Origin: Escherichia coli
GTDB taxonomy: Bacteria; Pseudomonadota; Gammaproteobacteria; Enterobacterales; Enterobacteriaceae
Strand: one strand, 5' to 3'
DNA length: 64,000 nt
Assembly: GCF_041248615.1 (NCBI RefSeq)
Contig: NZ_CP158426.1
The notes under the pieces were generated by a model. The model was not told where the DNA came from. It ran no database searches and worked only from the letters and a program-made list of their open reading frames with translations. Shown one piece after another: positions 21,940 to 56,458 of this stretch. Made by a program: the position numbers and the translations under genes. Position 1 is the first letter of the stretch; every line of letters starts with the position of its first letter.

Positions 21940-22277
21940 TTAAACATTTATAAGCGTTATAAATGGGTGGAACCTGTAAAGACTTCTACTCATTTATATT
22001 CTTTGTCGCCTCTAAAAAACCTCCATTTTGCCCATCCTGGACTAATCATTATCATTTTCTACAAATTCTGTGGCGTTAATTTTTCGTTGGAGTGAAAATT
22101 ATTACGTCGGAGTTTGGTGGATTTTAGTCGGTATAGAATTACTTTAAATATTTGGCTTTTCAATCAATGAATTAAGTGCTCTTTAACATAATGGATGTGT
22201 TGTTTGTGTGTTTCTGTTAAGTTGGTAGATTGTGACTGACTTAAAAAATCAATAATTAATAATAGGTTATGTTTAGT

Positions 22278-22672
22278 GAGTTCCCCGCGCCAGCGGGGAT
22301 AAACCGGCTGATGCGGTTCTATCACCACCACAAATTATGAGTTCCCCGCGCCAGCGGGGATAAACCGCAAATACGCGCGAGTGGCTAACCTGGAATCATG
22401 AGTTCCCCGCGCCAGCGGGGATAAACCGGCGCGGACGATAATCAGGGGCAGGCAGGGCACGAGTTCCCCGCGCCAGCGGGGATAAACCGGAAATCCAATA
22501 TTAACGTGGTGTTTTCAAAACGAGTTCCCCGCGCCAGCGGGGATAAACCGCGTTTAGCTCCGCAATGCTGGATATCACTGATGAGTTCCCCGCGTCAGCG
22601 GGGATAAACCGTATGGGAAACAGTAGCAACGGGCACACTGGCGGAGTTCCCCGCGCCAGCGGGGATAAACCA
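22278..22672 (+). CRISPR. Orphan type I-E CRISPR array (CRISPR-II / 2.1): 7 repeats, 6 spacers of 32 bp, leader on the left
   Basis: 29-bp repeat GAGTTCCCCGCGCCAGCGGGGATAAACCG at 61-bp period; repeat 6 has the GCGTCAG variant; last repeat ends ..AAACCA; AT-rich leader with GTTGGTAGATTGT at 22221-22233. Confidence 0.95.
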
Positions 22673-23140: not shown

Positions 23141-23265
23141 AACAGGGATAAACCGAACTAGTTAAAGTTTTTATTATGTTCCCTGCATCAGCGGGGATAA
23201 ACCGGACTTGTTATCATTTTTTAAGTTGTCGAACTTATGTTCCCCACGTCAGCGGGGATAACCAT
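23141..23265 (+). CRISPR. Degenerate CRISPR remnant (CRISPR 2.2-2.3-like): partial repeat, two degenerate repeats, one 32-bp spacer
   Basis: ..AACAGGGATAAACCG (23141-23155); ATGTTCCCTGCATCAGCGGGGATAAACCG (23176-23204); 32-bp spacer; ATGTTCCCCACGTCAGCGGGGATAACCA (23237-23264). Confidence 0.6.
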
Positions 23266-38370: not shown

Positions 38371-39105
38371 ATGTCCAAACTCGATCTAAACGCCCTGAAC
38401 GAACTGCCGAAGGTAGATCGCATTCTGGCGCTGGCAGAAACTAACGCCGAACTGGAAAAACTGGATGCTGAAGGCCGCGTTGCCTGGGCGCTGGATAATC
38501 TGCCCGGTGAATATGTACTTTCTTCCAGTTTCGGCATTCAGGCGGCGGTGAGCCTGCATCTGGTGAATCAGATTCACCCGGATATCCCGGTGATCCTCAC
38601 CGATACGGGTTATCTGTTCCCGGAAACCTACCGCTTTATTGACGAGTTAACGGACAAACTCAAGCTCAACCTGAAAGTGTACCGCGCTACCGAAAGCGCC
38701 GCCTGGCAGGAAGCGCGCTACGGCAAACTGTGGGAGCAGGGCGTTGAAGGCATTGAAAAGTACAATGACATCAACAAAGTCGAACCGATGAACCGGGCGC
38801 TGAAAGAACTGAATGCGCAAACCTGGTTTGCTGGCCTGCGCCGTGAACAATCCGGCAGCCGCGCCAATTTACCGGTGCTGGCAATTCAGCGTGGCGTATT
38901 TAAAGTGCTGCCGATTATCGACTGGGATAACCGAACTATTTATCAGTACCTGCAAAAACATGGCCTGAAATATCACCCATTATGGGATGAAGGATATTTA
39001 TCGGTCGGTGATACCCATACAACCCGTAAATGGGAACCCGGCATGGCGGAAGAAGAAACGCGTTTCTTTGGCTTAAAAAGAGAATGTGGGTTACACGAAG
39101 GGTAA
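38371..39105 (+). CDS. cysH: Phosphoadenosine phosphosulfate (PAPS) reductase CysH
   Basis: ORF 38218-39105; start at ATG 38371 ([15 protein letters not shown]...) gives 244 aa. Confidence 0.9.
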
Positions 39106-39123
39106 ATATTGCCGGATAAATTA

Positions 39124-39161
39124 AACGCCTCTGTCAGAAATGATGGGGGCGTTTTTATTTT
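39124..39161 (+). terminator. Intrinsic terminator after cysH
   Basis: Hairpin AAACGCC..GGGGGCGTTT followed by TTTTATTTT. Confidence 0.6.
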
Positions 39162-39369
39162 GCGAGCAGCATTCCTGATTTTAAACGTGAACGCCGCTGG
39201 AAGAATTATCAGGTATAGAATGGCGTTGGGTGCTTGAGGCTGTCTGGCGTTAAGCATTCGCGAGGTTCCAGATGGACAAAAGCCCCAGGCGATATTTCTA
39301 TCAACCTGAGGCCAGCGTTCGAACCTAAGCAATTCGAATGTTAGTCTCTTCTTTGCAGGGAGGCAAGAC

Positions 39370-39522
39370 ATGCTGACAAAATATGCCCTTGTGGCAATCA
39401 TCGTACTGTGTTGTACAGTACTGGGATTCACGCTGATGGTAGGCGACTCGTTGTGTGAGTTGAGTATCAGAGAACGTGGTATGGAGTTTAAGGCAGTTCT
39501 CGCTTACGAATCGAAGAAGTAG
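39370..39522 (+). CDS. Hok/Gef-family small membrane toxin (50 aa), HokE-like; not in ORF track because shorter than 60 aa
   Basis: [50 protein letters not shown]: hydrophobic N-terminal helix, conserved Cys, Hok signature ..LCE..R...E..A.LAYE; mRNA-like 5' GGGUGCUUGAGGC and 3' GCACCC plus T-run. Confidence 0.7.
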
Positions 39523-39716
39523 CCACCACGCGGGGGTAAAACCCCGCGTATTGAATTGTGATGGTTTGGTCTCCTGCACCCTTTTTTAATTTATATTGTT
39601 TATGTGAATATTATGCCTATGTTTATTATTTATATATATTACTGATGAAAATTATTTGATTATTCATAATGTAAATATTTTATTGAACGATATATATCAC
39701 AGATAATTTTTAATAT

Positions 39717-42416
39717 ATGCGTAAATATCCTTTAAGTTTACTGAAGGATAAAAATATTGTGACTTTTTTTGATTTCTGGGGAAAAACCCGACGCGGCGAG
39801 AAAGACGGGGGCGACGACTATCACCTTCTTTGCTGGCATTCGCTGGATGTAGCCGCGATGGGCTATTTAATGGTTAAAAGCAATTGCTTCGGACTGGCTG
39901 ACTATTTTCGTCAATTAGAGATTTCTGACAAGGAACAGGCGGCTCAATTTTTCGCCTGGTTGTTGTGCTGGCACGATACTGGTAAATTTGCCCGCTCATT
40001 TCAGCAACTTTACCTGCACCCGAAACTCAGGGTTCCGGAAGGTGCTAGAAAAAATTACGAAAAAATCTCTCATTCAACGCTGGGCTACTGGTTGTGGCAT
40101 CATTATTTAAGTGAATGTCAGGAGTTACTTCCTTCCTCTTCACTCTCTCCCCGCAAACTTACACGTGTAATAGCGATGTGGATGCCCATAACTACCGGGC
40201 ATCATGGTCGCCCGCCTGACCGTATTGATGAACTGGATAATTTTCTGCCTGAAGACAAAGCTGCCGCGCGAGATTTTCTTCTTGAAATCAAACCACTGTT
40301 TCCGCTCATAGAGATCCCCGCATTCTGGGATGATGATGAGGGCATTGAACTTATAAAACACCTTTCCTGGTATATCTCTGCAACCGTCGTGCTCGCAGAC
40401 TGGACGGGTTCGTCAACGCGATTTTTTCCACGCGTCGCACACCCAATGGATATTAAAGGTTACTGGCAGAAAACTTTAGTTCAGGCTCAAAACGCCTTAA
40501 CCGTCTTTCCTCTAAAAGCAAAAGTCGCGCCTTTCACCGGAATTAATACGCTGTTTCCTTTTATTGAGAATCCGACACCGTTACAGCAAAAGGTGCTGGA
40601 TCTGGATATCAGCCAGCCAGGGCCACAGTTATTTATTCTGGAAGATGTGACTGGCGCAGGTAAAACGGAAGCGGCGCTTATCCTGGCGCACAGGTTGATG
40701 GCTGCGGGTAAAGCGCAGAGTTTGTTTTTTGGCCTGCCAACAATGGCAACGGCCAATGCCATGTACGATCGACTGGTCAAAACCTGGCTTGCTTTCTATT
40801 CGCCAGAGTCCCGCCCCAGCCTGGTGCTGGCACACAGTGCCCGAACATTAATGGACCGCTTTAATGAATCACTCTGGTCCGGTGATTTAGTCGGGTCAGA
40901 AGAACCGGATGAACAAACGTTCAGTCAGGGATGTGCGGCCTGGTTTGCCGACAGTAACAAGAAGGCGCTACTGGCTGAAATTGGCGTCGGCACGCTGGAT
41001 CAGGCGATGATGGCGGTGATGCCGTTCAAACATAATAATGTGCGGCTTCTGGGACTGAGTAACAAAATCCTGCTGGCTGATGAGATCCATGCCTGTGACG
41101 CTTACATGTCATGCATTCTTGAAGGGCTGATCGAGCGGCAGGCGCGTGGCGGAAACAGCGTCATTTTGCTTTCTGCCACGTTATCTCAACAGCAGTGCGA
41201 CAAACTCGTTGCTGCCTTTGCGCGTGGTACAGAGGGCCAGCAAGAAGCTCCGTTCCTGGAAAAGGATGATTACCCCTGGCTGACGCACGTTACGAAATCC
41301 GATGTGCATTCACACCGGGTAGCGACGCGCAAAGACGTTGAGCGTAGCGTGAGCGTGGGTTGGCTTCATAGCGAACAAGAATGTATTGCGCGTATCGAAT
41401 CGGCAGTAAGTCAGGGGAAATGCATCGCCTGGATCCGGAATTCTGTCGATGACGCTATTAAGGTTTATCGTCAGTTGCTTGCCCGCGGCGTCATTCCTGC
41501 TTCCAGCCTTTCTCTTTTTCATAGCCGCTTTGCTTTTAGCGATCGCCAGCGAATTGAAACGGAAACGCTGGCACGCTTCGGTAAAAGTTGTAGTTTACAG
41601 AGATCATCACAAGTCATTGTTTGTACACAAGTAATTGAACAAAGTGTGGATATTGACCTGGACGAAATGATCTCCGACCTGGCCCCTGTTGATTTGCTGA
41701 TCCAGCGAGCGGGGCGATTACAGCGGCATATCCGCGATATTAATGGTCAGTTAAAGCGTGACGGAAAAGACGAGCGTTCTCCTCCTGAATTGCTGATTCT
41801 GGCCCCCGTCTGGGACGACTCTCCGGGTGATGAATGGTTTGGCAGAGCCATGCGTAACAGTGCATATGTCTACCCCGATCATGGGCGAATCTGGCTGACG
41901 CAGCGTGTGCTGCGTCAGCAAGGCGCTATTCAGATGCCACACTCAGCCCGGCTTCTGATTGAATCAGTCTACGGTGAGGACGTGGTAATGGCGGAAGGGT
42001 TTGCCCGCAGCGAGCAGGAGCAAGTGGGCAAATATTACTGCGATCGCGCAATGGCTAAAAAGTTTGTCCTGAACTTCAAGCCTGGCTATGCCGCCAATAT
42101 CAACGATTACCTTCCGGAAAAGCTGTCGACACGTCTGGCGGAGGAGTCTGTTTCCCTGTGGCTGGCTACCTGTATTGCCAGTGTGGTGAAGCCTTATGCC
42201 AACGGTGCTCACGCATGGGAAATGAGCGTTGTCAGAGTGCGTCGAAGCTGGTGGAAAAAACATCGGGATGAGTTTTCTTTACTGGAAGGGGAAGCGTTCA
42301 GGCAGTGGTGCATTGAACAGCGGAAAGATCCGGAGATGGCAAACGTGATTTTAGTTACCGATGACGAAAGTTGCGGGTATTCGGCTATGGAAGGATTGAC
42401 TGGCAAGGTTGGTTGA
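39717..42416 (+). CDS. cas3: Type I-E Cas3 helicase-nuclease (HD plus DEAD/DEAH helicase), variant not of K-12 type
   Basis: 899-aa ORF with Walker A LEDVTGAGKTEA and DEIH-like motif; alternative GTG start at 39759 with AAGGA 10 nt upstream. Confidence 0.85.
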   Translation: MRKYPLSLLKDKNIVTFFDFWGKTRRGEKDGGDDYHLLCWHSLDVAAMGYLMVKSNCFGLADYFRQLEISDKEQAAQFFAWLLCWHDTGKFARSFQQLYLHPKLRVPEGARKNYEKISHSTLGYWLWHHYLSECQELLPSSSLSPRKLTRVIAMWMPITTGHHGRPPDRIDELDNFLPEDKAAARDFLLEIKPLFPLIEIPAFWDDDEGIELIKHLSWYISATVVLADWTGSSTRFFPRVAHPMDIKGYWQKTLVQAQNALTVFPLKAKVAPFTGINTLFPFIENPTPLQQKVLDLDISQPGPQLFILEDVTGAGKTEAALILAHRLMAAGKAQSLFFGLPTMATANAMYDRLVKTWLAFYSPESRPSLVLAHSARTLMDRFNESLWSGDLVGSEEPDEQTFSQGCAAWFADSNKKALLAEIGVGTLDQAMMAVMPFKHNNVRLLGLSNKILLADEIHACDAYMSCILEGLIERQARGGNSVILLSATLSQQQCDKLVAAFARGTEGQQEAPFLEKDDYPWLTHVTKSDVHSHRVATRKDVERSVSVGWLHSEQECIARIESAVSQGKCIAWIRNSVDDAIKVYRQLLARGVIPASSLSLFHSRFAFSDRQRIETETLARFGKSCSLQRSSQVIVCTQVIEQSVDIDLDEMISDLAPVDLLIQRAGRLQRHIRDINGQLKRDGKDERSPPELLILAPVWDDSPGDEWFGRAMRNSAYVYPDHGRIWLTQRVLRQQGAIQMPHSARLLIESVYGEDVVMAEGFARSEQEQVGKYYCDRAMAKKFVLNFKPGYAANINDYLPEKLSTRLAEESVSLWLATCIASVVKPYANGAHAWEMSVVRVRRSWWKKHRDEFSLLEGEAFRQWCIEQRKDPEMANVILVTDDESCGYSAMEGLTGKVG

Positions 42417-42513
42417 GATGCCTGCGACAGGGCTCTCTGAATAGTTGATACACCGAAAAGGATGGAATGATGGACAACCGACCTAGGATGGTCTTTTTTA
42501 CGAGAGGATGCGT

Positions 42514-44076
42514 ATGAACTCGTTTTCACTTCTGACAACCCCGTGGTTGCCCGTTCGTTATAAAGACGGAACGACAGGCAAACTGGCGCCTGTCGATCTG
42601 GCGGATGAAAATGTTGTCGATATTGCTGCGCCACGGGCAGATCTCCAGGGAGCGGCATGGCAGTTTTTGCTGGGGCTACTACAAACCAGCTTTGCGCCAA
42701 AAGATCATCGTCGTTGGGATGATATCTGGGAAGACGGACTGGAATCTGAAAAGCTACGGGAAGCATTGCTGTCCTTAGAACACGCTTTCCAGTTTGGGCC
42801 AGATTCCCCTTCATTTATGCAGGATTTCGAGGCGCTCACAGGAGATAAAGTTCAGGTCGCTTCGCTACTGCCTGAGATTCCCGGCGCTCAAACAACGAAG
42901 TTTAATAAAGACCACTTTATCAAGCGTGGTGTAACGGAATACCTGTGCCCACATTGTTCTGCGTTAGCTCTGTTCTCCCTACAGTTAAATGCGCCGTCAG
43001 GTGGTAAAGGCTACCGCACCGGTTTACGCGGCGGTGGGCCGATGACCACTCTGATTGAATTACAGGAATATCAGGGCAATCAACAAACGCCCTTGTGGCG
43101 CAAACTGTGGCTCAATGTGATGCCGCAGGACGAAGCCGACTTACCGCTACCCAAAAAATTTGACGATCTGGTTTTCCCCTGGCTTGGCCCGACGCGTACC
43201 AGCGAACTGGCCGGTGCGGTGGTAACCGATGATCAGGTTAATAAACTCCAGGCGTACTGGGGAATGCCGCGGCGTATTCGTATTGATTTTAATACCACGA
43301 CAGTCGGCAACTGCGATATTTGCGGCGAGCAGAACGACGCGCTCCTGAGCCTGATGACGACCAAAAATTACGGCGCGAATTATGCCATGTGGCAGCATCC
43401 CTTAACGCCTTACCGTGTACCCCTTAAAGAGGGCGGCGAGTTTTACTCGGTCAAACCACAACCAGGCGGTTTAATCTGGCGCGACTGGTTAGGCCTTATC
43501 GAAACGGGTAAATCAGAAAACAATACGGAACTTCCCGCGCTGGTGGTGAAACTCTTTAATGCCAGCAGTCTCAAGCAGGCAAAAGTGGGCCTGTGGGGAT
43601 TTGGTTATGATTTTGACAACATGAAAGCGCGCTGTTGGTACGAACACCATTTTCCGCTGCTGCTCGATAAAAAAGAAGGCCAGATACCGAAGCTGCGGCT
43701 GGCTGCGCAAACGGCTTCACGGATTCTGAGTCTGTTACGGAGTGCATTGAAAGAAGCGTGGTTCTCCGATCCAAAAGGTGCACGGGGTGATTTCAGTTTT
43801 GTGGATATCGACTTCTGGAACAAAACTCAGCATCGCTTCCTGAGGTTAGTGCGCCACATTGAAGAAGGTCAGGATGCGGATGAATTACTCAGCAAATGGC
43901 AAAAGGAAATTTGGTTATTCGCGCGTCAGGATTTTGACGAGCGTGTCTTCACCAATCCATATGAGCCCGTTGATTTGAAACGCGTCATGACCGCGCGCAA
44001 GAAATATTTTACAACATCGGCGGAGAAGCAAAATGCTAAAGCCGCCAGGGAGAAAAAGCAGGAGGCTGCTGAATGA
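42514..44076 (+). CDS. casA: Cascade large subunit Cse1 (CasA)
   Basis: ORF 42508-44076; second ATG 42514 has better spacing from GAGAGG; about 520 aa; position after cas3. Confidence 0.8.
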   Translation: MNSFSLLTTPWLPVRYKDGTTGKLAPVDLADENVVDIAAPRADLQGAAWQFLLGLLQTSFAPKDHRRWDDIWEDGLESEKLREALLSLEHAFQFGPDSPSFMQDFEALTGDKVQVASLLPEIPGAQTTKFNKDHFIKRGVTEYLCPHCSALALFSLQLNAPSGGKGYRTGLRGGGPMTTLIELQEYQGNQQTPLWRKLWLNVMPQDEADLPLPKKFDDLVFPWLGPTRTSELAGAVVTDDQVNKLQAYWGMPRRIRIDFNTTTVGNCDICGEQNDALLSLMTTKNYGANYAMWQHPLTPYRVPLKEGGEFYSVKPQPGGLIWRDWLGLIETGKSENNTELPALVVKLFNASSLKQAKVGLWGFGYDFDNMKARCWYEHHFPLLLDKKEGQIPKLRLAAQTASRILSLLRSALKEAWFSDPKGARGDFSFVDIDFWNKTQHRFLRLVRHIEEGQDADELLSKWQKEIWLFARQDFDERVFTNPYEPVDLKRVMTARKKYFTTSAEKQNAKAAREKKQEAAE

Positions 44077-44609
44077 GTATTGTAAAAGAGGAGCACAAAG
44101 CCACGCTGCGTAAATGGCACGAAGAGTTGCAGGAAAAACGCGGCAATCGTGCCAGTCTGCGGCGTAGCACAACGGTTAATGATGTTTGTCTGTCAGAAGG
44201 GTTTCGTTCTCTGCTGATGCAGACCCACACTTTGTGGAAAATTGAAGCACAAGAGTGGCGTTTTACCGCACTGGCGCTGGTCGCCGCAGTTAGCGCCAAT
44301 GTTAAAGCTATTGATGAACGGCAGCCTTTTGCCGCGCAGCTGGCGGCGGTAATGTCGGAGGGGCGTTTTACTCGCCTGTCGGCAGTAAAAACGCCTGATG
44401 ATTTACTGCGTCAGTTACGTCGCGCGGTCAAATTATTAAATGGTTCCGTCAATCTTATCTCTTTGGCAGAAGATATTTTCCGCTGGTGCCAGGAGAGCGA
44501 CGACCTGCTCAATCATCACCGCCGCCAGCAGCGGCCAACAGAATTTATCCGTATCCGCTGGGCGCTGGAATATTACCAGGCTGGCGACGCCGATAACGAA
44601 CAAAATTAA
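44073..44609 (+). CDS. casB: Cascade small subunit Cse2 (CasB)
   Basis: 178-aa ORF overlapping casA stop by 4 bp. Confidence 0.8.
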   Translation: MSIVKEEHKATLRKWHEELQEKRGNRASLRRSTTVNDVCLSEGFRSLLMQTHTLWKIEAQEWRFTALALVAAVSANVKAIDERQPFAAQLAAVMSEGRFTRLSAVKTPDDLLRQLRRAVKLLNGSVNLISLAEDIFRWCQESDDLLNHHRRQQRPTEFIRIRWALEYYQAGDADNEQN

Positions 44610-44623
44610 TAAAGGACTATCTC

Positions 44624-45679
44624 ATGACGACATTTATTCAGCTTCATTTGTTAACCGCTTACCCTGCTGCCAACCTTAACCGTGATGACACCGGTGCGCC
44701 AAAAACTGTGGTACTGGGTGGAGCAACGCGTCTGCGCGTTTCCTCACAAAGTCTGAAACGTGCGTGGCGCACTTCTGCACTTTTTGAACAGGCACTGGCG
44801 GGCCATATTGGTATTCGCAGTGGGCGTATTGCGCGTGAGGCGGCAACTATCCTGATTGAGAAAGGCATCGAAGAGAAAAAAGCCATCGAATGGGCGGCAA
44901 AAATTGCGGATTATCTTGGGAAAGCTAAAAACGACAAAAAACCAAAAGATCCGCTCACTAACGCCGAAACTGAACAGCTAGTCCATATCAGCCCGGCAGA
45001 ATTTGACGCCGTAAAAGCGCTGGCCCATCAACTGGCCGAAGAAAAGCGCGCGCCAAAAGAGGAAGATCTCGCTTTGTTACGTAAAGATCGCATGGCGGTA
45101 GATATCGCTATGTTTGGTCGTATGCTGGCGAATAAACCCGAATTTAATGTTGAAGCCGCCTGCCAGGTCGCGCATGCATTTGGTGTCAGTGAAACGATTG
45201 TCGAAGATGATTTTTTCACCGCCGTTGATGATTTGCGCCAGGCTTCTGAAGATGCCGGTGCCGGGCATCTTGGTGAAACCGGATTCGGTTCTGCGCTGTT
45301 CTACACCTATATCTGCATCGATAAAGATCTGCTGGTCGAAAACCTCGGCGGTGACGAAGCGTTAGCTAATCAGACCTTGCGCGCCTTTACGGAAGCCGCA
45401 CTTAAAGTCTCCCCAACCGGCAAACAGAACAGCTTTGCCAGCCGTGCCTACGCCTCCTGGGCGCTGGCAGAAAAAGGCACTGAACAACCACGCTCTCTGG
45501 CGGCGGCTTTCTATGAACCCATTAATGGCACCCGGCAGTTAGATGTGGCGGTGCAGCGTATTACAACGCTTCGCGAAAATATGAATACGGTCTATGAACA
45601 GAAGACCGAATGCGCAAGCTTTGACGTGATGAACAAACAGGGAAGCATGAAGGACGTGCTGGACTTTATCTGCGCGTAA
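44624..45679 (+). CDS. casC: Cascade backbone subunit Cas7e (CasC)
   Basis: 351-aa ORF MTTFIQLHLLTAYPAANLNRDDTGAPK... Confidence 0.85.
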   Translation: MTTFIQLHLLTAYPAANLNRDDTGAPKTVVLGGATRLRVSSQSLKRAWRTSALFEQALAGHIGIRSGRIAREAATILIEKGIEEKKAIEWAAKIADYLGKAKNDKKPKDPLTNAETEQLVHISPAEFDAVKALAHQLAEEKRAPKEEDLALLRKDRMAVDIAMFGRMLANKPEFNVEAACQVAHAFGVSETIVEDDFFTAVDDLRQASEDAGAGHLGETGFGSALFYTYICIDKDLLVENLGGDEALANQTLRAFTEAALKVSPTGKQNSFASRAYASWALAEKGTEQPRSLAAAFYEPINGTRQLDVAVQRITTLRENMNTVYEQKTECASFDVMNKQGSMKDVLDFICA

Positions 45680-45689
45680 GGGGCGGCTA

Positions 45690-46436
45690 ATGAGCCAATA
45701 TTTGATTTTTCAGCTTCATGGGCCAATGGCATCCTGGGGCGTCGATGCCCCCGGCGAAGTGCGTCATACCCATGAACTGCCTTCGCGCTCAGCATTGCTG
45801 GGGCTGCTGGCTGCCGGGGTAGGGATTCGGCGTGATGATACCGAACGATTAAACGCGTTTAACCGCCACTATTCACTGGTGGTTTGCGCCAGCCGTAACC
45901 CGCGCTGGGCACGGGATTATCACACGGTCCAGATGCCAAAAGAGGTGCGTAAAGCGCGTTATTTCAGCCGTCGCGAAGAGTTGAGCGCCCCTGATCTTCT
46001 GAGCGCGATTATCTCCCGGCGCGACTACTACACCGATGCCTGGTGGATGGTGGCGGTGGCAACAACCCCCGATGCGCCTTACAGGCTTGAACAGTTGCAG
46101 GACGGTTTACGTCATCCGGTTTTTCCGCTTTATCTGGGGCGAAAAAGTCATCCGCTGGCGTTACCACTTGCGCCGTTACTGCTCGAAGGCAACGCGTCTG
46201 ATGTCTTACGTAACGCATACCAACAGTATCAGGATAGTTTCCGCGAACTGAAAGTCTCACTCCCGAAACTTCAGGATGAATGCTGGTGGGAAGGGGAACA
46301 CGACGGCCTGGTCGCGAGCAAAATATTACGTCGCCGGGATGTTCCTTTAAATCGTCAGCAGTGGCTGTTTGGGGAACGCACCATCAATCAGGGGCCGTGG
46401 CTCAGCAAGGAGGAACCATGTACCTCTCAAGAATAA
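45690..46436 (+). CDS. casD: Cascade subunit Cas5e (CasD)
   Basis: 248-aa ORF; operon position. Confidence 0.8.
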   Translation: MSQYLIFQLHGPMASWGVDAPGEVRHTHELPSRSALLGLLAAGVGIRRDDTERLNAFNRHYSLVVCASRNPRWARDYHTVQMPKEVRKARYFSRREELSAPDLLSAIISRRDYYTDAWWMVAVATTPDAPYRLEQLQDGLRHPVFPLYLGRKSHPLALPLAPLLLEGNASDVLRNAYQQYQDSFRELKVSLPKLQDECWWEGEHDGLVASKILRRRDVPLNRQQWLFGERTINQGPWLSKEEPCTSQE

Positions 46437-47064
46437 CCTTACATACCGGCCAGCTTTCGCCTGCGCAGTTGCTGCATCTGGTGGATCGCGGTGAATATGT
46501 AATGCATCAGTGGCTGTGGGATCTTTTTCCTGGCGGCAAAGAAAGGCAATTTCTTTATCGTCGGGAAGAACTCCAGGGGGCGTTTCGCTTTTTTGTCCTG
46601 TCGCAGGAACGCCCGGCGGAAAGTGATATTTTCACCATCGAATGCCGACCATTTGCGCCAGAGTTGCGTACCGGACAATCCCTTTGTTTCAACCTGCGGG
46701 CGAATCCAACAATTTGTAAAGCGGGCAAACGCCACGACTTGCTGATGGAGGCGAAACGGCAGGTGAGGGGGCAGGTGGAAGGAAGTGATGTCTGGTTGCA
46801 TCAACAACAGGCGGCGCTGGACTGGCTGGCAGCGCAGGGGGAAAGAAGCGGTTTTACACTACTGGATACCTCGGTCGATGCCTACCGACAACAGCAACTG
46901 CGGCGGGAAAACTCCCGGCAACTGATCCAGTTCAGTAGCGTGGATTATACGGGGATGCTTACGGTCACCGATCCTGGGTTATTTCTGCAACGTCTGAGCC
47001 AGGGGTATGGCAAAAGCCGCGCGTTCGGCTGTGGTCTGATGCTGATCAAACCCGGAGCAGAGGC

Positions 47065-47068
<4 letters not shown>
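46418..47068 (+). CDS. casE: CRISPR repeat endoribonuclease Cas6e (CasE)
   Basis: ORF 46280-47068; probable start MYLSRITLHTGQ at 46418 (216 aa), overlapping casD end; C-terminal G-rich loop GYGKSRAFGCG. Confidence 0.8.
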
Positions 47069-48278
<1,210 letters not shown>

Positions 48279-48374
48279 GTTATCTGTTCTTTAAAAATAA
48301 GGAAATGTTTTAATTTAGTTGGTAGATTGTTGATGCGGAATAAATTTTTTTAAAAACAGTTATGTATGCTTAGT

Positions 48375-49074
48375 GTGTTCCCCGCGTCAGCGGGGATAAA
48401 CCGGACTCAGTTTTTCCCTGCTGACCCTCCGAAGGGTGTTCCCCGCGTCAGCGGGGATAAACCGCCATGCCGCGCCAGCTCTGCGAAACAGCCCGCGTGT
48501 TCCCCGCGTCAGCGGGGATAAACCGATCCAAAGATAGTCGCCCCGATTGCCAAATTGGTGTTCCCCGCGTCAGCGGGGATAAACCGACGGTATTGTTCAG
48601 ATCCTGGCTTGCCAACAGGTGTTCCCCGCGTCAGCGGGGATAAACCGGCGGCACTAACGTGATAATCACGATCAATTATGTGTTCCCCGCGTCAGCGGGG
48701 ATAAACCGTGACGGTCCGAAAAAAGTTGGCTGAAGAAATTGTGTTCCCCGCGTCAGCGGGGATAAACCGGTTATTGCGTTTTCCTCACCTGCGGCGAGTC
48801 CGTGTTCCCCGCGTCAGCGGGGATAAACCGCATTCCGTGCAGCGGTCTGAATAATTGCCGCGGTGTTCCCCGCGTCAGCGGGGATAAATCGAGTAACGAC
48901 GAAAAAATACAGGCACGGGCCAGGTGTTCCCCGCGTCAGCGGGGATAAACCGATCCCCGCAGGTATCGCGCAGCTATCGATCGAGTGTTCCCCGCGTCAG
49001 CGGGGATAAACCGGACGCACTGGATGCGATGATGGACATCACTTGGAGTTCCCCGCCCCTGCGGTAGAACTCCC
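48375..49074 (+). CRISPR. Type I-E CRISPR array (CRISPR-I) adjacent to cas2: 12 repeats (last degenerate), 11 spacers of 32 bp
   Basis: 29-bp repeat GTGTTCCCCGCGTCAGCGGGGATAAACCG at 61-bp period; repeat 9 ends ..AAATCG; terminal repeat GAGTTCCCCGCCCCTGCGGTAGAACTCCC; leader 48279-48374 with GTTGGTAGATTGT at 48319-48331. Confidence 0.95.
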
Positions 49075-49094
49075 AGCTCTCATTTTCAAACCCA

Positions 49095-50132
49095 TCAAGA
49101 CGCCTTCGCCAGCTCCTTCACCAGCGGTAGCATTATCCGCATAACATCACGGCAGCGACGTTCTATTCTTCCAGGAAGTGCCTTATCAATATGTTGTTGA
49201 TTATCCAGTCTTACGTCATGCCAGCTATTTCCCGCAGGGAATGCAGCTGTTTTTGCGCGTTGCTGATAACCATCCTTATTCCCAAGATTCCAATTTGTTG
49301 CTTCTACCGAAAGTACGGCAATACCGGCTTTGTCGAAAACTTCGGCATCATTACAACAGCCAGTACCCTTCGGATAATTTTTATTCAAACCCGGATTGGT
49401 CGTTGCGGCAATTCCATGACTACGCGCAATTGCCAGCGCCCTGTCGCGCGTTAATTTCCTTACTGCTTCAGGGGTTTTTACACCGCTGTTGAAATACAAT
49501 TTATCGCCAACAATTAAGTTATCGAGATTAATCACCAGCAGCGTATTTTTCTTTTCGGTGTCACTCATCCGCTTGAGTAAATTCTCAGCGCCTAATTTCC
49601 CTTCCTCTTCGCCGCTGGTCGCCACAAATCGAATACCATACTCGGTAGGCGTATTTTTCAGGCGTTCTGCCAGTTCCAGCATGACACCTAAACCTGCAGC
49701 GTTATCATCCATTCCTTGTAACGTCAGTCCGCCGAGATTGGCATCGGCGTCAGCATCGCTCAGCGGGGCGTAAGTATCCAGATGCGCCATAATGATGATC
49801 TGCTGCGGCGCTTTGCCTTCATGAGCGGCAATCACCGTACTTCCCGTCACGTTATGCCAGCTCTTGCGATTATCGCGGGCGGTATAAATATACCGACTAT
49901 TAAATGTCCGAATATCACTGCGATAACCCATTTGCTGAAACTGTTGGCGAATATAATCGGCAGATAACATTTCTGCAGGAGTTCCGGTCATGCGTCCCGG
50001 AAAGAAAGTAGCAATATGTCGTGCCTGAGTATTAGCAAAATCGCCAGGTTTAGCTGACGAGGCGTGTACGGGGAGAATAAAGCATACGCCGAGCGCCAGG
50101 GCAGCGGTACGGTGGCGCAATGCGGAAAACAT
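49095..50132 (-). CDS. iap: Alkaline phosphatase isozyme conversion aminopeptidase Iap
   Basis: 345-aa ORF with signal peptide, M28-peptidase-like. Confidence 0.8.
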   Translation of the reverse strand: MFSALRHRTAALALGVCFILPVHASSAKPGDFANTQARHIATFFPGRMTGTPAEMLSADYIRQQFQQMGYRSDIRTFNSRYIYTARDNRKSWHNVTGSTVIAAHEGKAPQQIIIMAHLDTYAPLSDADADANLGGLTLQGMDDNAAGLGVMLELAERLKNTPTEYGIRFVATSGEEEGKLGAENLLKRMSDTEKKNTLLVINLDNLIVGDKLYFNSGVKTPEAVRKLTRDRALAIARSHGIAATTNPGLNKNYPKGTGCCNDAEVFDKAGIAVLSVEATNWNLGNKDGYQQRAKTAAFPAGNSWHDVRLDNQQHIDKALPGRIERRCRDVMRIMLPLVKELAKAS

Positions 50133-50383
50133 AGTGAGTCCTTAAATACCATGCAAATTTTTTTACCGCCATAGTATGAAACTGCCGATGCGCTAAAACA
50201 ATTTCAAATCTTCCTAAACGCCCGAAATCCGGTGCCTTAAGCACTTTTTGATATTAGCTTTGCCAAATCGTTATTCCGTTAAGGAACTACTCATTCTAAT
50301 TGGTAATTTCATTCGTTCTCTTACGCTCCCTATAGTCGAAACATCTGATGGCAAGAAAATAGCGGTATTGCAAAGGAACGGTT

Positions 50384-51292
50384 ATGGATCAAAAACGACT
50401 TACTCACCTGCGGCAACTGGAGGCGGAAAGCATCCACATTATTCGCGAGGTGGCGGCAGAATTCTCAAATCCGGTGATGCTCTACTCTATCGGTAAAGAT
50501 TCCAGCGTCATGCTGCATCTGGCGCGCAAGGCGTTTTATCCAGGTACGCTGCCTTTCCCGTTGCTGCATGTCGATACCGGCTGGAAATTCCGCGAGATGT
50601 ATGAGTTCCGCGATCGTACGGCTAAAGCCTACGGCTGCGAGCTGCTGGTGCATAAAAACCCGGAAGGCGTGGCGATGGGGATTAATCCATTCGTTCATGG
50701 CAGCGCGAAACATACCGATATTATGAAAACTGAAGGCCTGAAACAGGCGCTGAATAAATACGGTTTTGATGCCGCCTTCGGTGGTGCACGCCGCGACGAA
50801 GAGAAATCCCGTGCTAAAGAGCGAATCTACTCTTTCCGTGACCGCTTCCATCGCTGGGATCCGAAAAATCAGCGCCCGGAGCTGTGGCACAACTACAACG
50901 GGCAAATTAACAAAGGCGAAAGCATTCGCGTCTTCCCGCTCTCTAACTGGACCGAGCAGGATATCTGGCAATACATCTGGCTGGAAAATATCGACATTGT
51001 GCCGCTGTATCTCGCTGCGGAACGACCGGTTCTGGAACGCGACGGTATGTTGATGATGATTGATGACAACCGTATCGACCTGCAACCGGGAGAAGTGATT
51101 AAAAAACGGATGGTGCGTTTCCGTACGCTGGGCTGCTGGCCGCTGACCGGTGCGGTGGAGTCAAATGCACAAACACTGCCGGAAATCATCGAAGAGATGC
51201 TGGTTTCCACCACCAGTGAACGTCAGGGTCGCGTGATTGACCGCGACCAGGCGGGATCCATGGAGTTGAAAAAACGTCAGGGGTATTTTTAA
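50384..51292 (+). CDS. cysD: Sulfate adenylyltransferase subunit 2 CysD
   Basis: 302-aa ORF, PAPS-reductase-like fold motif (SIGKDS). Confidence 0.9.
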
Positions 51293-51293
51293 G

Positions 51294-52721
51294 ATGAACA
51301 CCGCACTTGCACAACAAATCGCCAATGAAGGCGGCGTCGAAGCCTGGATGATTGCGCAACAACATAAAAGCCTGCTGCGTTTTCTGACCTGTGGTAGCGT
51401 CGATGACGGCAAAAGTACCCTGATTGGTCGTCTGCTGCACGATACCCGCCAAATCTACGAAGATCAGCTCTCATCGCTGCATAACGACAGTAAGCGTCAC
51501 GGCACCCAGGGCGAAAAGCTGGATCTGGCTCTGCTGGTGGACGGCCTGCAAGCTGAGCGCGAACAGGGCATCACCATTGACGTGGCTTACCGTTATTTCT
51601 CTACCGAGAAGCGTAAATTTATTATCGCCGATACCCCAGGGCACGAGCAGTACACTCGCAATATGGCGACTGGCGCATCGACATGTGAACTGGCGATCTT
51701 ACTGATCGATGCCCGTAAAGGCGTGCTCGATCAAACCCGTCGTCACAGTTTTATCTCCACACTGTTGGGGATCAAACATCTGGTCGTGGCGATCAACAAA
51801 ATGGATCTGGTGGGTTACAGTGAAGAGACGTTCACCCGTATTCGCGAAGATTATCTGACGTTTGCCGGGCAGCTGCCGGGTAATCTGGATATCCGCTTTG
51901 TGCCGCTCTCTGCACTGGAAGGCGACAACGTGGCTTCGCAAAGTGAAAGTATGCCGTGGTACAGCGGTCCGACACTGCTCGAAGTGCTGGAAACCGTGGA
52001 GATCCAGCGAGTGGTGGATGCCCAGCCAATGCGCTTCCCGGTGCAGTACGTTAATCGCCCGAATCTCGATTTTCGTGGCTACGCCGGAACGCTGGCATCC
52101 GGTCGAGTGGAAGTCGGGCAACGTGTCAAAGTGCTGCCCTCTGGTGTGGAATCAAACGTCGCGCGGATCGTGACTTTTGATGGCGATCGCGAAGAAGCCT
52201 TTGCCGGAGAAGCGATCACCCTAGTGCTGACGGATGAGATCGACATCAGCCGTGGCGATCTGCTGCTGGCGGCAGACGAAGCGTTACCGGCTGTGCAGAG
52301 CGCGTCGGTGGATGTGGTATGGATGGCGGAACAGCCGCTTTCCCCAGGCCAGAGTTACGACATCAAAATTGCCGGTAAGAAGACACGTGCTCGTGTTGAT
52401 GGCATTCGTTATCAGGTTGATATTAATAACCTTACCCAACGCGAAGTTGAAAACCTGCCGCTGAACGGCATCGGGCTGGTGGATCTCACTTTTGACGAGC
52501 CACTGGTGTTAGATCGTTATCAGCAAAATCCGGTTACCGGTGGGCTGATTTTTATCGATCGCCTGAGCAATGTGACCGTGGGTGCCGGTATGGTGCACGA
52601 GCCAGTTAGCCTGGCAACTGCTGCGCCATCTGAATTCAGTGCATTCGAACTGGAATTGAATGCCCTGGTTCGTCGCCACTTTCCGCACTGGGGCGCGCGC
52701 GATTTGTTGGGGGATAAATAA
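51294..52721 (+). CDS. cysN: Sulfate adenylyltransferase subunit 1 CysN (GTPase)
   Basis: 475-aa ORF with G-domain motifs ([19 protein letters not shown]). Confidence 0.9.
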
Positions 52722-53326
52722 TGGCGCTGCATGACGAAAACGTCGTCTGGCATAGCCATCCGGTCACTGTGCAACAACGCGAGCTACACCACGGTCATCG
52801 TGGTGTAGTGCTGTGGTTTACCGGCCTCTCCGGGTCCGGTAAATCAACGGTCGCCGGGGCGCTGGAGGAGGCGTTACATAAACTCGGCGTCAGTACGTAT
52901 CTGCTGGATGGCGACAATGTTCGCCACGGATTATGCAGCGATCTCGGTTTTAGCGATGCCGATCGTAAAGAGAATATCCGTCGCGTCGGTGAAGTGGCGA
53001 ATTTGATGGTTGAAGCCGGACTGGTGGTGCTGACCGCATTCATCTCGCCACACCGCGCCGAACGCCAGATGGTTCGTGAACGCGTAGGAGAAGGGCGCTT
53101 TATCGAAGTGTTTGTCGATACGCCGCTGGCGATTTGCGAAGCCCGCGATCCAAAAGGCTTATATAAGAAAGCGCGTGCCGGTGAACTGCGCAACTTTACG
53201 GGAATAGATTCCGTTTACGAAGCGCCTGAATCGGCAGAAATTCATCTCAATGGTGAACAATTAGTAACAAATTTGGTACAGCAATTATTAGATCTGTTGA
53301 GACAGAACGATATTATCAGATCCTGA
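52721..53326 (+). CDS. cysC: Adenylylsulfate (APS) kinase CysC
   Basis: 201-aa ORF with P-loop GLSGSGKST; overlaps cysN stop. Confidence 0.9.
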
Positions 53327-53375
53327 GACACCACCGGGTTTCCATGCCCGGTTCGTCAAAGTAACAGGATCAAAT

Positions 53376-53699
53376 ATGCGTAATAGCCATAACATTACAC
53401 TAACAAATAACGACAGCCTTACTGAGGATGAAGAAACCACATGGTCACTGCCTGGTGCTGTGGTCGGTTTTATCTCCTGGTTATTTGCGCTGGCGATGCC
53501 GATGTTGATTTATGGCTCTAACACGCTGTTTTTCTTTATCTACACCTGGCCTTTCTTTCTGGCACTGATGCCTGTCGCGGTAGTGGTGGGGATTGCGCTG
53601 CATTCATTGATGGACGGAAAGCTACGCTACAGTATTGTTTTCACCCTGGTGACAGTAGGCATTATGTTTGGCGCACTGTTTATGTGGCTACTGGGCTAA
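53376..53699 (+). CDS. ygbE: Small inner-membrane protein YgbE (DUF3561)
   Basis: 107-aa ORF with predicted transmembrane segments. Confidence 0.7.
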   Translation: MRNSHNITLTNNDSLTEDEETTWSLPGAVVGFISWLFALAMPMLIYGSNTLFFFIYTWPFFLALMPVAVVVGIALHSLMDGKLRYSIVFTLVTVGIMFGALFMWLLG

Positions 53700-53892
53700 T
53701 TTGTACTTTCTTGTCTCCTCTGTTCATAATTCAAACCGTAACTAATAATGAGATTATGTTCTGCACGCCCTGGGTATACGTAACAATGGACAAATGTGGT
53801 ACATTTGCCCGCGTTGTCGCGGTATCCCCAACAGAGGATGTAGAGTCGTCTTCGGATGCATGGGATGATGATGCCGTTTTTCAGGGGGCAGG

Positions 53893-54204
53893 ATGGGTAA
53901 ACTAACGCTGCTGTTGCTGGCTATTCTGGTCTGGCTACAGTATTCGCTGTGGTTCGGTAAGAACGGTATACATGACTATACCCGCGTCAATGATGATGTG
54001 GCGGCACAGCAAGCTACAAACGCGAAACTTAAAGCGCGAAACGATCAACTTTTTGCCGAAATTGACGATCTCAATGGCGGCCAGGAGGCGCTCGAAGAGC
54101 GTGCGCGTAATGAACTCAGCATGACCAGGCCGGGCGAAACTTTTTATCGTCTGGTGCCTGACGCGTCGAAGCGCGCACAGTCTGCGGGGCAAAACAATCG
54201 ATAA
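53893..54204 (+). CDS. ftsB: Cell division protein FtsB
   Basis: 103-aa [28 protein letters not shown]... with coiled-coil region. Confidence 0.85.
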
Positions 54205-54222
54205 ATCAGCCCGGGAATTAAC

Positions 54223-56438: not shown

Positions 56439-56458
<20 letters not shown>
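55409..56458 (+). CDS. truD: tRNA pseudouridine(13) synthase TruD
   Basis: 349-aa ORF; start overlaps ispF stop. Confidence 0.85.

Follow-up and report, generated by a model that had tools for sequence, protein, structure and literature searches.

The CRISPR-Cas locus of type I-E in Escherichia coli is known in two forms, E1 and E2, which have been described repeatedly (Touchon & Rocha 2010; Díez-Villaseñor 2013; Almendros 2014). The two differ over the whole cassette (PMC3903273), the type of leader changes together with the cas variant (PMC3903273, PMC3737337), and an anchor spacer and terminal repeat common to both have been described (PMC3903273). Salmonella also has two cas profiles, cas-STM and cas-STY, which are strongly different “except for cas1 and cas2”, with cas1 at 82.5–87% amino acid identity (PMC7712790). 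The shuffling of adaptation and effector modules is a general principle in CRISPR-Cas systems (Koonin & Makarova 2019, PMC6452270).

We analysed a window of 64,000 nucleotides from E. coli (assembly GCF_041248615.1, contig NZ_CP158426.1), to which E. coli NRZ14408 is 100% identical. Positions 39717–49074 hold a complete type I-E locus, cas3-cse1-cse2-cas7-cas5-cas6e-cas1-cas2, followed by a leader and a 12-repeat array, and placed between hok/sok-cysH on one side and iap on the other (Table 1). The closest described system is arrangement A in Almendros et al. 2014, the E. coli cas-E1/cas-EO (O157:H7-type) system that has CRISPR-A repeats and leader L1 and is named var. B-8552 in PMC12736100. 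The window shares with it the chromosomal site, neighbours, hok/sok, gene order, gene lengths, GTGTT repeat and anchor spacer, and has 92–99% nucleotide identity to thousands of E. coli genomes. As in the cas-E1 of Almendros 2014, hok/sok lies upstream and CRISPR-A (GTGTT) repeats and an L1 leader lie beside cas, and the cas genes group with those of O157:H7, E. albertii and Salmonella, apart from those of K-12. Published definitions of E1/E2 and CRISPR-A/T fit the window (PMC3903273, PMC3737337, PMC2886076, PMC12736100), and the gene lengths given in 2025 (2700, 1563, 537, 1056, 747, 651, 924 and 294 bp; PMC12736100) are those found here. The window differs in having T at loop position 13 in 11 of 11 repeats, where the four other E1 strains examined mostly have C, and its cse1 and cse2 are patchy, with 83–87% nucleotide identity in some E1 comparisons; among the complete genomes searched, none besides the identical record was at least 99% identical to the operon.

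Of 5426 complete E. coli genomes, 2414 contained at least 80% of the window operon, and 1114 contained the E2 (K-12) operon. The term “variant”, under which the locus had been annotated, is thus K-12-centred, as cas-E1 is the majority form in E. coli. The arrangement in the window (cysH, hok/sok, cas-E1, leader L1, CRISPR2.1, iap) is ancestral in the species.

Table 1 Features of the type I-E locus and the orphan array (positions in the window).
Feature	Coordinates	Strand	Details
Orphan CRISPR-II (CRISPR2.3) leader	22128..22277	+	90% identical to K-12 CRISPR-II leader; inside a collinear 96% block
Orphan CRISPR-II array	22278..22672	+	7 repeats GAGTTCCCCGCGCCAGCGGGGATAAACCG, six 32-nt spacers
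Solitary degenerate repeat ATGTTCCCTGCATCAGCGGGGATAAACCG, CRISPR2.2 remnant	23176..23204	+	repeat-like sequence matching it is present at the equivalent position in K-12
sok antisense RNA region of hok/sok toxin-antitoxin module	39228..39385	+	immediately upstream of cas cassette
hok CDS, Hok/Gef family toxin	39370..39522	+	RefSeq annotation of identical record
AT-rich intergenic region upstream of cas3	39523..39716	+	27% GC; without similarity to K-12
cas3, HD nuclease + helicase, 899 aa	39717..42416	+	TIGR01596 84 (cut-off 43), TIGR01587 228 (cut-off 102)
cse1/casA/cas8e, large Cascade subunit, 520 aa	42514..44076	+	TIGR02547 609 (cut-off 70)
cse2/casB/cas11, small Cascade subunit, 178 aa	44073..44609	+	TIGR02548 103 (cut-off 28.5)
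cas7e/casC, Cascade backbone, 351 aa	44624..45679	+	TIGR01869 448 (cut-off 178)
cas5e/casD, 248 aa	45690..46436	+	TIGR01868 158 (cut-off 69)
cas6e/casE, pre-crRNA endoribonuclease, 216 aa	46418..47068	+	TIGR01907 288 (cut-off 45); start per RefSeq
cas1e, integrase, 307 aa	47065..47988	+	TIGR03638 381 (cut-off 216)
cas2e, 97 aa	47985..48278	+	TIGR01873 132 (cut-off 33)
CRISPR-I (CRISPR2.1) leader	48279..48374	+	96 bp, 24% GC; published L1 / leader-A type
CRISPR-I array	48375..49013	+	11 repeats of GTGTTCCCCGCGTCAGCGGGGATAAACCG, ten 32-nt spacers, 61-nt period
Anchor spacer	49014..49045	+	common to K-12; also in strains O157, DX6, 98228, A38
Degenerate terminal repeat GAGTTCCCCGCCCCTGCGGTAGAACTCCC	49046..49074	+	common to K-12; completes the array

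The eight cas ORFs (39717–48278, + strand) are co-oriented and intact, and the RefSeq annotation of the identical record NZ_LT599825.1 has the same eight cas genes. Every Cas protein scored above the curated NCBIfam type I-E cut-off, gene set and order are those of type I-E, including the signature genes cse1/cas8e and cse2/cas11 (TIGR02547 and TIGR02548), and the array has the type I-E format of a 29-nt palindromic repeat and 32-nt spacers with an AT-rich leader downstream of cas2. The N-termini reported earlier are present: MRKYPLSLL.. in Cas3 and, with the start that RefSeq places at 42514, MNSFSLL.. in Cse1. Catalytic residues are kept in Cas1 (E141, H208 and D221, invariant compared to K-12) and in Cas6e, where BLASTP alignment showed conservation of both the G-rich loop at the C-terminus and the catalytic His (H20 in K-12). 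A 262-aa cas6e ORF from 46280 was rejected as an over-extension of the RefSeq start at 46418. The K-12-type models scored below their cut-offs (PRK09694 for Cas3, 424 against 569; PRK09693 for Cse1, 104 against 576), which places the window outside the K-12 cas-E2 group. The GC content of the window cas genes is 50.1–55.4%, compared to 43.5–48.4% for the K-12 effector genes.

The K-12 cas-E2/cas-EK system (the model Cascade) has the same subtype, gene order, chromosomal site, repeat length (29 nt), stem, 5' handle, 61-nt unit, terminal anchor spacer and degenerate repeat. In contrast to the window, however, hok is deleted in K-12, the cas3–casA spacer is 414 bp rather than 97 bp, and the adaptation and effector modules differ in phylogenetic affinity. 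Amino acid identity to K-12 over aligned residues was unequal, as the first-pass annotation had anticipated: 84.6% for Cas1 and 85.1% for Cas2, versus 31% for Cas3, 25% for Cse1, 27% for Cse2, 31% for Cas7, 36% for Cas5 and 31% for Cas6e, with no tblastn match between Cse2 and K-12 CasB. The strong divergence of Cas3 and Cse1 was therefore borne out. The description of Cas1 and Cas2 as very close to K-12 overstates the match, as cas1 and cas2 are only 70% and 73% identical at the nucleotide level with synonymous sites (dS) saturated in both.

This bears on the proposal, made in the same annotation, that cas3 to cas6e were replaced within E. coli while the resident cas1-cas2 and array were kept, making the window operon a mosaic. 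The unequal protein identities (84–85% versus 25–36%) speak for such a replacement, and there are genera, e.g. Oceanospirillum, in which the effector alone has been swapped and cas1-cas2 retained. However, nucleotide identity to K-12 is about 97%, with dS of 0.09–0.15, for the genes on the flanks (iap, cysD, cysN, cysI and cysH), far from the 70–73% identity and saturated dS of cas1-cas2. Alignment to K-12 is near-identical (96%) up to 39372, the end of the hok ATG (39370–39372), which forms the left edge of the differing segment, and 96% identity resumes only at ~48985, in the last regular repeat and anchor spacer. Between these edges there is no DNA similarity from cas3 to cas6e in the alignment, about 70% nucleotide identity over cas1-cas2-leader (68.5% for the CRISPR-I leader), and at the cas6e|cas1 boundary identity does not climb back to the level of the flanks. 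Between the window and K-12, cas1-cas2 were thus not kept in place, and the anchor spacer with the degenerate terminal repeat, whose end at 49074 is also the end given by the first-pass annotation, marks the right boundary of the exchanged cassette. Since both modules of the window also agree with their counterparts in Salmonella, E. albertii and Klebsiella, we regard in-place replacement of the effector genes in this operon as extremely improbable.

The reading of the Cas1 similarity was based on species-level loci, taken as the best-scoring 80 of 202 hits. Across these 80 of 202, Cas1 was 75–100% identical to that of the window, a range whose lower bound is set by this selection, while Cas7 identity ranged from about 25% to 99%, so that Cas1 at least 75% identical is found beside three or more effector lineages that differ deeply from one another. 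Among pairs of the same best 80 of 202 loci with Cas7 below 40% identity (n = 614), median Cas1 identity was 79%, and 51 of the 614 reached or exceeded the window–K-12 value. An identity of 84% is therefore a plateau value, and it is no sign of recent shared ancestry in this clade. The window Cas1 is equidistant (dN 0.12–0.16) from K-12's clade, Pectobacterium, C. amalonaticus and Erwinia endophytica; for cas1, dN was 0.131 between the window and K-12, 0.032 between the window and Salmonella, and 0.03–0.06 between K-12 and enterobacterial clade B. Identity to S. enterica subsp. diarizonae was 69–96% for the window proteins overall, with 96% for Cas1, 94% for Cas2, 86% for Cas7, 75% for Cse1 and 69% for Cas3.

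In neighbour-joining trees (51 taxa, 200 bootstraps) the window clade, containing E. albertii, Salmonella, Klebsiella and Citrobacter, was recovered in both the adaptation tree (98% support) and the effector tree (100%); this agreement goes against the idea of a mosaic in the window. K-12 Cas1-Cas2 grouped with UBA5654, C. portucalensis and Raoultella (84%; 77–84% for this placement), all of which carry E1-lineage effectors, while the effector tree gave 100% to the E2 lineage and 100% to K-12 with Citrobacter amalonaticus. From these comparisons the window operon appears to have co-diverged with its relatives as a unit, and it is the K-12 operon that presents as the chimera.

A simpler account would be rate heterogeneity alone, with E1 and E2 unbroken since one ancient split, slowly evolving Cas1 and Cas2, and no exchange anywhere. 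Rates do differ between the modules, as the Salmonella comparison illustrates (Cas1 96% but Cas3 69%, Cse1 75% and Cas7 86%), and largely the same tree was reported for all Cas proteins in Escherichia and Salmonella (Touchon & Rocha 2010, PMC2886076). Rate differences do not, however, readily give same-genus pairs with Cas1 95–99.7% and Cas7 about 30% identical, as found among the best-scoring 80 of 202 loci, nor the pairings within Oceanospirillum, Marinomonas and Marisediminitalea/Alteromonas whose bootstrap support was 100% for adaptation but 0% for the effector. Nor do they explain why K-12 Cas1 is nearer to the Cas1 beside E1-lineage effectors (92–95%) than to that of its own effector lineage (83–86%), and we consider this account very unlikely. 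A swap at the same site is seen when O. linum is compared with O. maris: identity is 77.8% over the upstream flank and 78.0% over cas1-cas2-array, and cas3 to cas6e is unalignable. A recombination junction at cas6e|cas1 exists in the history of type I-E systems.

The polymorphism and the chimeric nature of the K-12 system are supported by these trees. We hold it at even odds that exchange at cas6e|cas1 has recurred in Gamma- and some Betaproteobacteria, in which an ultra-conserved, host-lineage-specific “socket” of cas1-cas2, leader and near-invariant repeat stays and cas3–cas6e cassettes are swapped as a long-lived balanced polymorphism; such a statement was not found in the literature searched, the coverage of which was limited. 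The swapped interference cassettes would be anciently diverged and would share one chromosomal site; three or more forms exist, one of them with a rearranged gene order. That anti-CRISPRs against Cascade or Cas3 maintain the polymorphism is speculation. As in general module shuffling, the Cas1-Cas2 and effector phylogenies are incongruent with a junction at cas6e|cas1; unlike it, the exchange here is within one subtype and one chromosomal site, with a nearly invariant repeat and host-tracking cas1-cas2. The cas-STM/cas-STY contrast repeats the E1 versus E2 pattern, although Salmonella differs in host genus and in its commonest repeat loop, CCAG; our guess is that the second Salmonella profile is equivalent to clade B.

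In CRISPR-I, GTGTTCCCCGCGTCAGCGGGGATAAACCG occurs 11 times, exactly or almost so, as the repeat, and no repeat matches were found in shuffled sequence. The repeat at 48863 has AAATCG in its 5'-handle part. The repeats of the orphan CRISPR-II array are of the form GAGTT..GCGCCAGC.., one with a T loop and the last ending in A. The two-position difference between the arrays noted in the first-pass annotation is confirmed at positions 2 and 13, the latter being the second base of the 4-nt hairpin loop. Position 2, which had been assigned to the 5' handle, belongs instead, given the established Cas6e cleavage site, to the mature crRNA's 3' handle; the repeat's last 8 nt, AUAAACCG, make up the 5' handle, which is the same in both variants. 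Both fold into a 7-bp stem and 4-nt loop (−15.1 kcal/mol). In K-12 the window's two variants are found in swapped positions, GAGTT in CRISPR-I and GTGTT in CRISPR-II, and across the loci compared one repeat serves E1- as well as E2-lineage effectors with loop bases varying freely. Because the variants fold identically and K-12 has them swapped, the orphan array is very probably used: most likely it would be transcribed, processed by the window Cas6e and loaded into the window Cascade. Repeat position 2 or the leader may matter for adaptation fidelity, since 7 of 18 insertions were aberrant when K-12 Cas1-Cas2 acted on a non-cognate repeat and leader (Díez-Villaseñor 2013).

The question of array use would be moot in nature if the locus were an intact-looking but dormant relic, silenced and with static arrays. 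E. coli type I-E systems are generally H-NS-silenced. The region upstream of cas3, likely the promoter and an H-NS-bound region, and the leader (27% and 24% GC) are AT-rich in the manner typical of H-NS binding in K-12 and Salmonella. Spacer turnover is slow in E. coli (PMC2886076), and only 1 of the 17 spacers had a match in the phage and plasmid collections searched. That one, however, spacer 4 of CRISPR-I (48587–48618), matches upfA of phage P1 at 32 of 32 positions and P1-like plasmids perfectly; the PAM position of this sole protospacer (in phage P1) reads ACG, not AAG or ATG. The eight ORFs are intact with their catalytic residues, and O157:H7 cas-E1 acquires spacers in experiments (PMC3737337). 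Furthermore, the T-loop base present in 11 of 11 CRISPR-I repeats occurs in the closest strain only in the anchor-adjacent repeat, and that strain has a run of 7 leader-proximal repeats sharing a different private mutation; these patterns are a signature of repeat copying during real acquisitions. We therefore think dormancy unlikely.

Our preferred explanation, to which we give a probability of about 90%, is that the window E1 operon co-diverged with its relatives, a chimeric E2 cassette replaced the whole E1 cassette in K-12, effector modules have been repeatedly exchanged, and the orphan array is most likely used. Judging from family membership, the leader would drive a pre-crRNA, and Cas6e would cut this where each repeat hairpin has its 3' base. 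The resulting crRNAs would be 61 nt long, of which 8 nt are the 5' handle and 21 nt the hairpin handle on the 3' side; Cascade (Cse1, Cse2, Cas7, Cas5 and Cas6e) would find PAM-flanked protospacers for degradation by Cas3, and new spacers would enter at the leader-proximal repeat via Cas1-Cas2. The segment replaced in K-12 would begin right behind the hok ATG and end within the array, including cas1, cas2, the leader and the leader-proximal repeats, and the incoming cassette would have joined an E2-lineage effector to clade-B cas1-cas2. Cas1, Cas2 and the repeat appear to be extremely conserved in this type I-E branch and to follow the host lineage, with a cas3-to-cas6e module in at least three anciently diverged forms that would have been repeatedly exchanged at cas6e|cas1. 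The window–K-12 contrast would then be due to whole-cassette replacement in K-12 combined with a conserved cas1-cas2 and repeat and exchanged effector forms.

What sets the window apart from K-12 is the E1/E2 dimorphism described in print in 2010–2014 and again in 2025, which our finding rediscovers, and it is already in the literature that results from K-12 may not transfer to the E1 system carried by most E. coli. The smaller points added here are the K-12 operon as a chimera, the uninformativeness of ~84% Cas1 identity on relatedness, and the shared repeat format. One repeat format common to very different Cascades predicts the cross-use of arrays and, if the socket reading is true, E1 and E2 Cascades would be interchangeable readers of one crRNA format.

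The E. coli NRZ14408 chromosome (NZ_LT599825.1) was 100% identical to the window. All eight cas genes were intact and in the same orientation, and each of the eight Cas proteins scored above the curated NCBIfam cut-off for its type I-E family, with E141, H208 and D221 of Cas1 and the catalytic histidine of Cas6e all kept. Mechanical ORF starts at 46280 (cas6e) and 38218 (cysH) were over-extended and lowered the estimates of identity to K-12; the RefSeq starts were adopted. A scan for consensus promoters and terminators over 39100-49200 found fewer promoter-like sites than in shuffled sequence, and none in the leader. The cas3-cse1 intergenic region was 97 bp in the window (42417-42513) vs 414 bp in K-12 (14140-14553 of its locus, L001). 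The K-12 region houses the H-NS-controlled Pcas promoter, so E1, the cassette form of the window, may regulate its Cascade operon in another way. Elsewhere in the window we observed the CsrB small RNA at 2799-3158 (Rfam RF00018, 383 bits) and a tandem repeat of 2.7 copies of 24 nt (CAACCGCAAATTCAGCCGACACAA) at 58158-58222, probably inside a coding region.

Coordinates of the type I-E cas locus and of the CRISPR arrays in the window
Feature	Coordinates	Remarks
cas locus	39717-49074	between cysI-cysH and iap-cysD-cysN
sok, part of hok/sok module	39228-39385	Rfam
hok CDS	39370-39522	RefSeq annotation of NZ_LT599825.1
spacer region		AT-rich; after hok/sok, before cas3
cas3	39717-42416	
cse1	42514-44076	
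cse2	44073-44609	
cas7	44624-45679	
cas5	45690-46436	
cas6e	46418-47068	
cas1	47065-47988	
cas2	47985-48278	
CRISPR-I leader		96 bp, after cas2
CRISPR-I array	48375-49013	eleven 29-nt repeats, 32-nt spacers; pattern search
CRISPR-I end	to 49074	anchor spacer, then degenerate terminal repeat
CRISPR-II orphan array, without cas genes	22278-22672	seven repeats; 17 kb upstream of cas3; at the K-12 CRISPR-II position
lone degenerate repeat	23176	beyond CRISPR-II

What the window holds is the ordinary cas-E1 system of E. coli, and the phenomenon has been described before. Almendros et al. (2014) coined the names cas-E1 and cas-E2 for the two forms: the major one, cas-E1, clusters with O157:H7, E. 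albertii and Salmonella, and cas-E2 (45.6% GC) was acquired most recently and occurs in K-12 and in a minority of strains, mostly of phylogroup A (PMC3903273). Díez-Villaseñor et al. (2013) tied the same forms, as cas-EO and cas-EK, to GTGTT repeats with leader-A and GAGTT repeats with leader-T respectively, and found that their acquisition motifs differ (PMC3737337). The gene lengths in the window are those given in a 2025 survey for “var. B-8552”, for which 84% Cas1 and 86% Cas2 identity were reported (PMC12736100). Of 5426 complete E. coli genomes, 2414 carried the window operon over at least 80% of its length (megablast), and the K-12 operon was present in 1114 complete E. coli genomes at 97-100% identity. 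That the window holds a divergent, novel I-E variant is ruled out by its 100% match to an E. coli genome in RefSeq and by the 92-99% identity of its cas region to thousands of other E. coli genomes. At ≥ 99%, the cas region matched no complete genome besides NRZ14408.

Within the E1 form, cse2 was 86% identical to that of O157:H7 and cse1 82.6% identical to that of strain A38, with cas5 and cas7 reaching 99-99.9% (window 42514-44609 compared with loci L083-L086 of other E1 E. coli strains). This unevenness of cse1 and cse2 is due either to intra-E1 recombination or to rapid change of the PAM-reading subunit and the small subunit, in agreement with PMC3903273. E. coli-type E1 cas genes with 97-100% protein identity to the window were also found in two MAGs labelled Bacillota (L003) and Collinsella (L076); the contigs almost certainly come from E. 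coli and were mis-binned into these unrelated metagenome assemblies.

Shuffled sequence gave zero matches to the repeat, and neither array was reported by Tandem Repeats Finder because the spacers differ. The repeats of CRISPR-I (the array beside the cas genes) and CRISPR-II differ at positions 2 and 13, the latter being the second base of the 4-nt loop. The first-pass annotation had likewise counted two differences, one of them in the loop, but had assigned position 2 to the 5′ handle, whereas cleavage at the established Cas6e site leaves it in the 3′ handle once the crRNA is mature. Both variants have the same 5′ handle (AUAAACCG), and both folded into the same 7-bp stem (− 15.1 kcal/mol).

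The regular repeats of CRISPR-I all have the T loop (11/11), and in one of them (48863-48891) AAATCG replaces AAACCG within the future crRNA 5′ handle. In the closest strain, 98228, whose cas1 is 100% identical to that of the window, the T loop occurs in the anchor-adjacent repeat only and the private AAATCG change is common to the seven leader-proximal repeats (L085 11776-12170); the anchor spacer is the sole spacer which the two arrays have in common. In type I-E systems the leader-proximal repeat is the template for each new one, so these runs of like repeats record real acquisitions. Most likely the CRISPR-I array of the window shrank to its anchor-adjacent repeat and then regrew.

All comparative evidence points to the orphan CRISPR-II array being used by the system of the window. 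The leader of the array is 90% identical to that of K-12, and K-12 is the mirror image of the window, with GAGTT repeats in CRISPR-I and GTGTT in 6/7 CRISPR-II repeats. The repeat GTGTTCCCCGCGCCAGCGGGGATAAACCG is common to effectors (the products of cas3 to cas6e) of the E1 lineage (Salmonella, Klebsiella, Pectobacterium and others) and of the E2 lineage, to which K-12 belongs (C. amalonaticus, Erwinia endophytica and Pantoea), and one marine variant is common to E1-lineage, E2-lineage and third-form effectors. Positions 11-14 of the repeat, comprising the final stem base and loop bases 1-3, vary between arrays (CCAG, TCAG, CTAG, CGAG and TGAG). The stem and 5′ handle are near-constant in enterobacterial arrays; marine arrays have compensated stem changes and AUGAACCG in the handle. 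The CRISPR-II leader is also similar across E1 strains, E2 strains and strains without cas genes (PMC3903273). A mismatch might show in adaptation fidelity rather than in processing, and K-12 Cas1-Cas2 acting on a non-cognate repeat and leader made aberrant insertions in 7/18 cases (PMC3737337).

In the protospacer search, CRISPR-I spacer 4 (48587-48618) matched phage P1 upfA at 32/32 positions (NC_005856.1 63241-63272) and was also found in about 600 P1-like plasmids. In P1, ACG stood 5′ of the match at the PAM position, vs the canonical AAG/ATG, and this lone case proves nothing. The same search found no match for the other spacers, including all those of CRISPR-II, so PAM statistics could not tell which Cas1-Cas2 variant had loaded CRISPR-II.

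Compared to K-12 over aligned residues, Cas1 and Cas2 had 84.6% and 85.1% amino acid identity, vs 36% for Cas5, 31% for each of Cas3, Cas7 and Cas6e, 27% for Cse2 and 25% for Cse1. This bears out the first-pass annotation in that Cas3 and Cse1 are strongly divergent and the divergence is unequal. Its view that Cas1 and Cas2 are very close to K-12 overstates the match and does not hold for the DNA, which is 70-73% identical with dS saturated or not computable. The flanking genes iap, cysD, cysN, cysI and cysH were about 97% identical to K-12 (dS 0.09-0.15). Over the core-gene flanks 16686-39372 and 49014-56713, identity was about 96-97% (dS 0.09-0.15), which suggests a large phylogenetic distance between the strain and K-12.

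Up to 39372 (hok ATG), the window runs collinear with K-12 at 96% identity. Over 39373-47076 there is no DNA similarity, identity in cas1, cas2 and the leader is about 70% (leader 68.5%), and flank-like values are reached again from the last regular repeat (48985) onwards, in the anchor spacer and in the degenerate terminal repeat. The left E1/E2 boundary is exactly the hok start codon (window 39370-39372; about 17312 in L001); K-12 retains the sok region and the hok ATG without the hok coding sequence, leaving only “sokX”. These breakpoints reproduce the published insertion module, which comprises the intergenic region, cas-E2, leader L2 and at least one repeat, and which integrated inside the array (PMC3903273). 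With breakpoints at the hok ATG and the last regular repeat, the proposed replacement of the interference genes with cas1-cas2 kept in place does not describe the E. coli event, as the cas1-cas2-leader segment lies inside the diverged region.

The Cas1 identity of 84% is a plateau rather than the mark of a recently shared module. We took the best 80 of 202 loci matched in species-representative genomes by an alignment of the window and K-12 Cas1. In these loci, which cover Enterobacterales, Oceanospirillales, Alteromonadales, Methylophaga, Shewanella, Parasutterella and Bordetella, Cas1 was 75-100% identical to that of the window, with the lower bound fixed by the selection. In the same 80 loci, Cas7 was 52-99% identical to that of the window in the E1 lineage and 51-74% identical to that of K-12 in the E2 lineage (Citrobacter amalonaticus, Erwinia endophytica, a Pantoea, Marinomonas rhodophyticola, Oceanospirillum linum, Methylophaga lonarensis and Cycloclasticus), and further effector forms matched both poorly. 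The plateau reading follows from two observations: among 614 locus pairs with Cas7 identity < 40%, median Cas1 identity was 79% and 51 reached at least the window-K-12 value; and the dN of the window cas1 was near-equal (0.12-0.16) to K-12, its clade, Pectobacterium, C. amalonaticus and Erwinia endophytica, with 0.03 to its own clade.

We compared neighbour-joining trees (200 bootstraps) of the adaptation proteins (Cas1 + Cas2) and the effector proteins (Cse1 + Cas7 + Cas5 + Cas6e). The former tracks host taxa and the latter effector lineages: the Oceanospirillum pair, the Marinomonas pair and Marisediminitalea + Alteromonas each had 100% support in the adaptation tree and 0% in the effector tree, and the E2 lineage had 0% and 100%, respectively. 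The window clade (E. albertii, Salmonella, Klebsiella, Citrobacter, Phytobacter and Intestinirhabdus) was recovered in both (98% and 100%). K-12 grouped with UBA5654, C. portucalensis and Raoultella by adaptation (84%; effector 0%) and with C. amalonaticus by effector (100%; adaptation 0%). The window operon is a co-diverged unit and the K-12 operon is not. The dN of K-12 cas1 was 0.03-0.06 to the other cas1 genes of clade B, the enterobacterial clade holding its own Cas1-Cas2; those genes sit beside E1-lineage effectors, and the distance is comparable to that of window-Salmonella (0.032). To the Cas1 of its own effector lineage it was 0.13; GC in K-12 was 43.5-48% in the effector genes and 51% in cas1. 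A sharp nucleotide junction between K-12 and clade B was looked for, and since all comparisons were 70-79% identical with saturated dS, it is placed at gene resolution only.

In Marisediminitalea aggregata (L065 2545-9153) the effector cassette was rearranged (cas3, cas6e, a 145-aa ORF, cas7, cas5, cse1), with K-12-like Cas3 and Cse1 (PRK09694, 971 bits; PRK09693, 549) and the ORF being cse2-sized without a family match. The adjacent Cas1 matched, at 99.7% identity, the Cas1 of an Alteromonas locus whose operon is canonical and of the E1 lineage. L065 and L068 each carry a 273-aa KilA-N ORF (9177-9998; Pfam PF04383, E 1e−21) between cas6e/cse1 and cas1, conserved along with cas1-cas2 (86.9% nucleotide identity between the two loci). 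The marine loci L037, L051 and L055 likewise have about 0.5-0.9 kb separating cas6e from cas1; the window has no KilA-N gene at this boundary.

Effector-only swaps at one chromosomal site have occurred elsewhere, for example in Oceanospirillum: between O. linum and O. maris the upstream flank and cas1-cas2-array were 77.8% and 78.0% identical, and cas3 to cas6e were unalignable. The first-pass annotation, which had read the window as a mosaic made by effector replacement, was therefore right about a process in the family but had placed it in the wrong genome and at the wrong time, the window trees being congruent. The pattern agrees with module shuffling as a general principle (PMC6452270). 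In the literature searched we found no specific statement of the incongruence between the adaptation and effector parts of the K-12 operon, and the cross-taxon pattern of a Cas1 plateau with tree incongruence is the sole part of these results which is possibly new.
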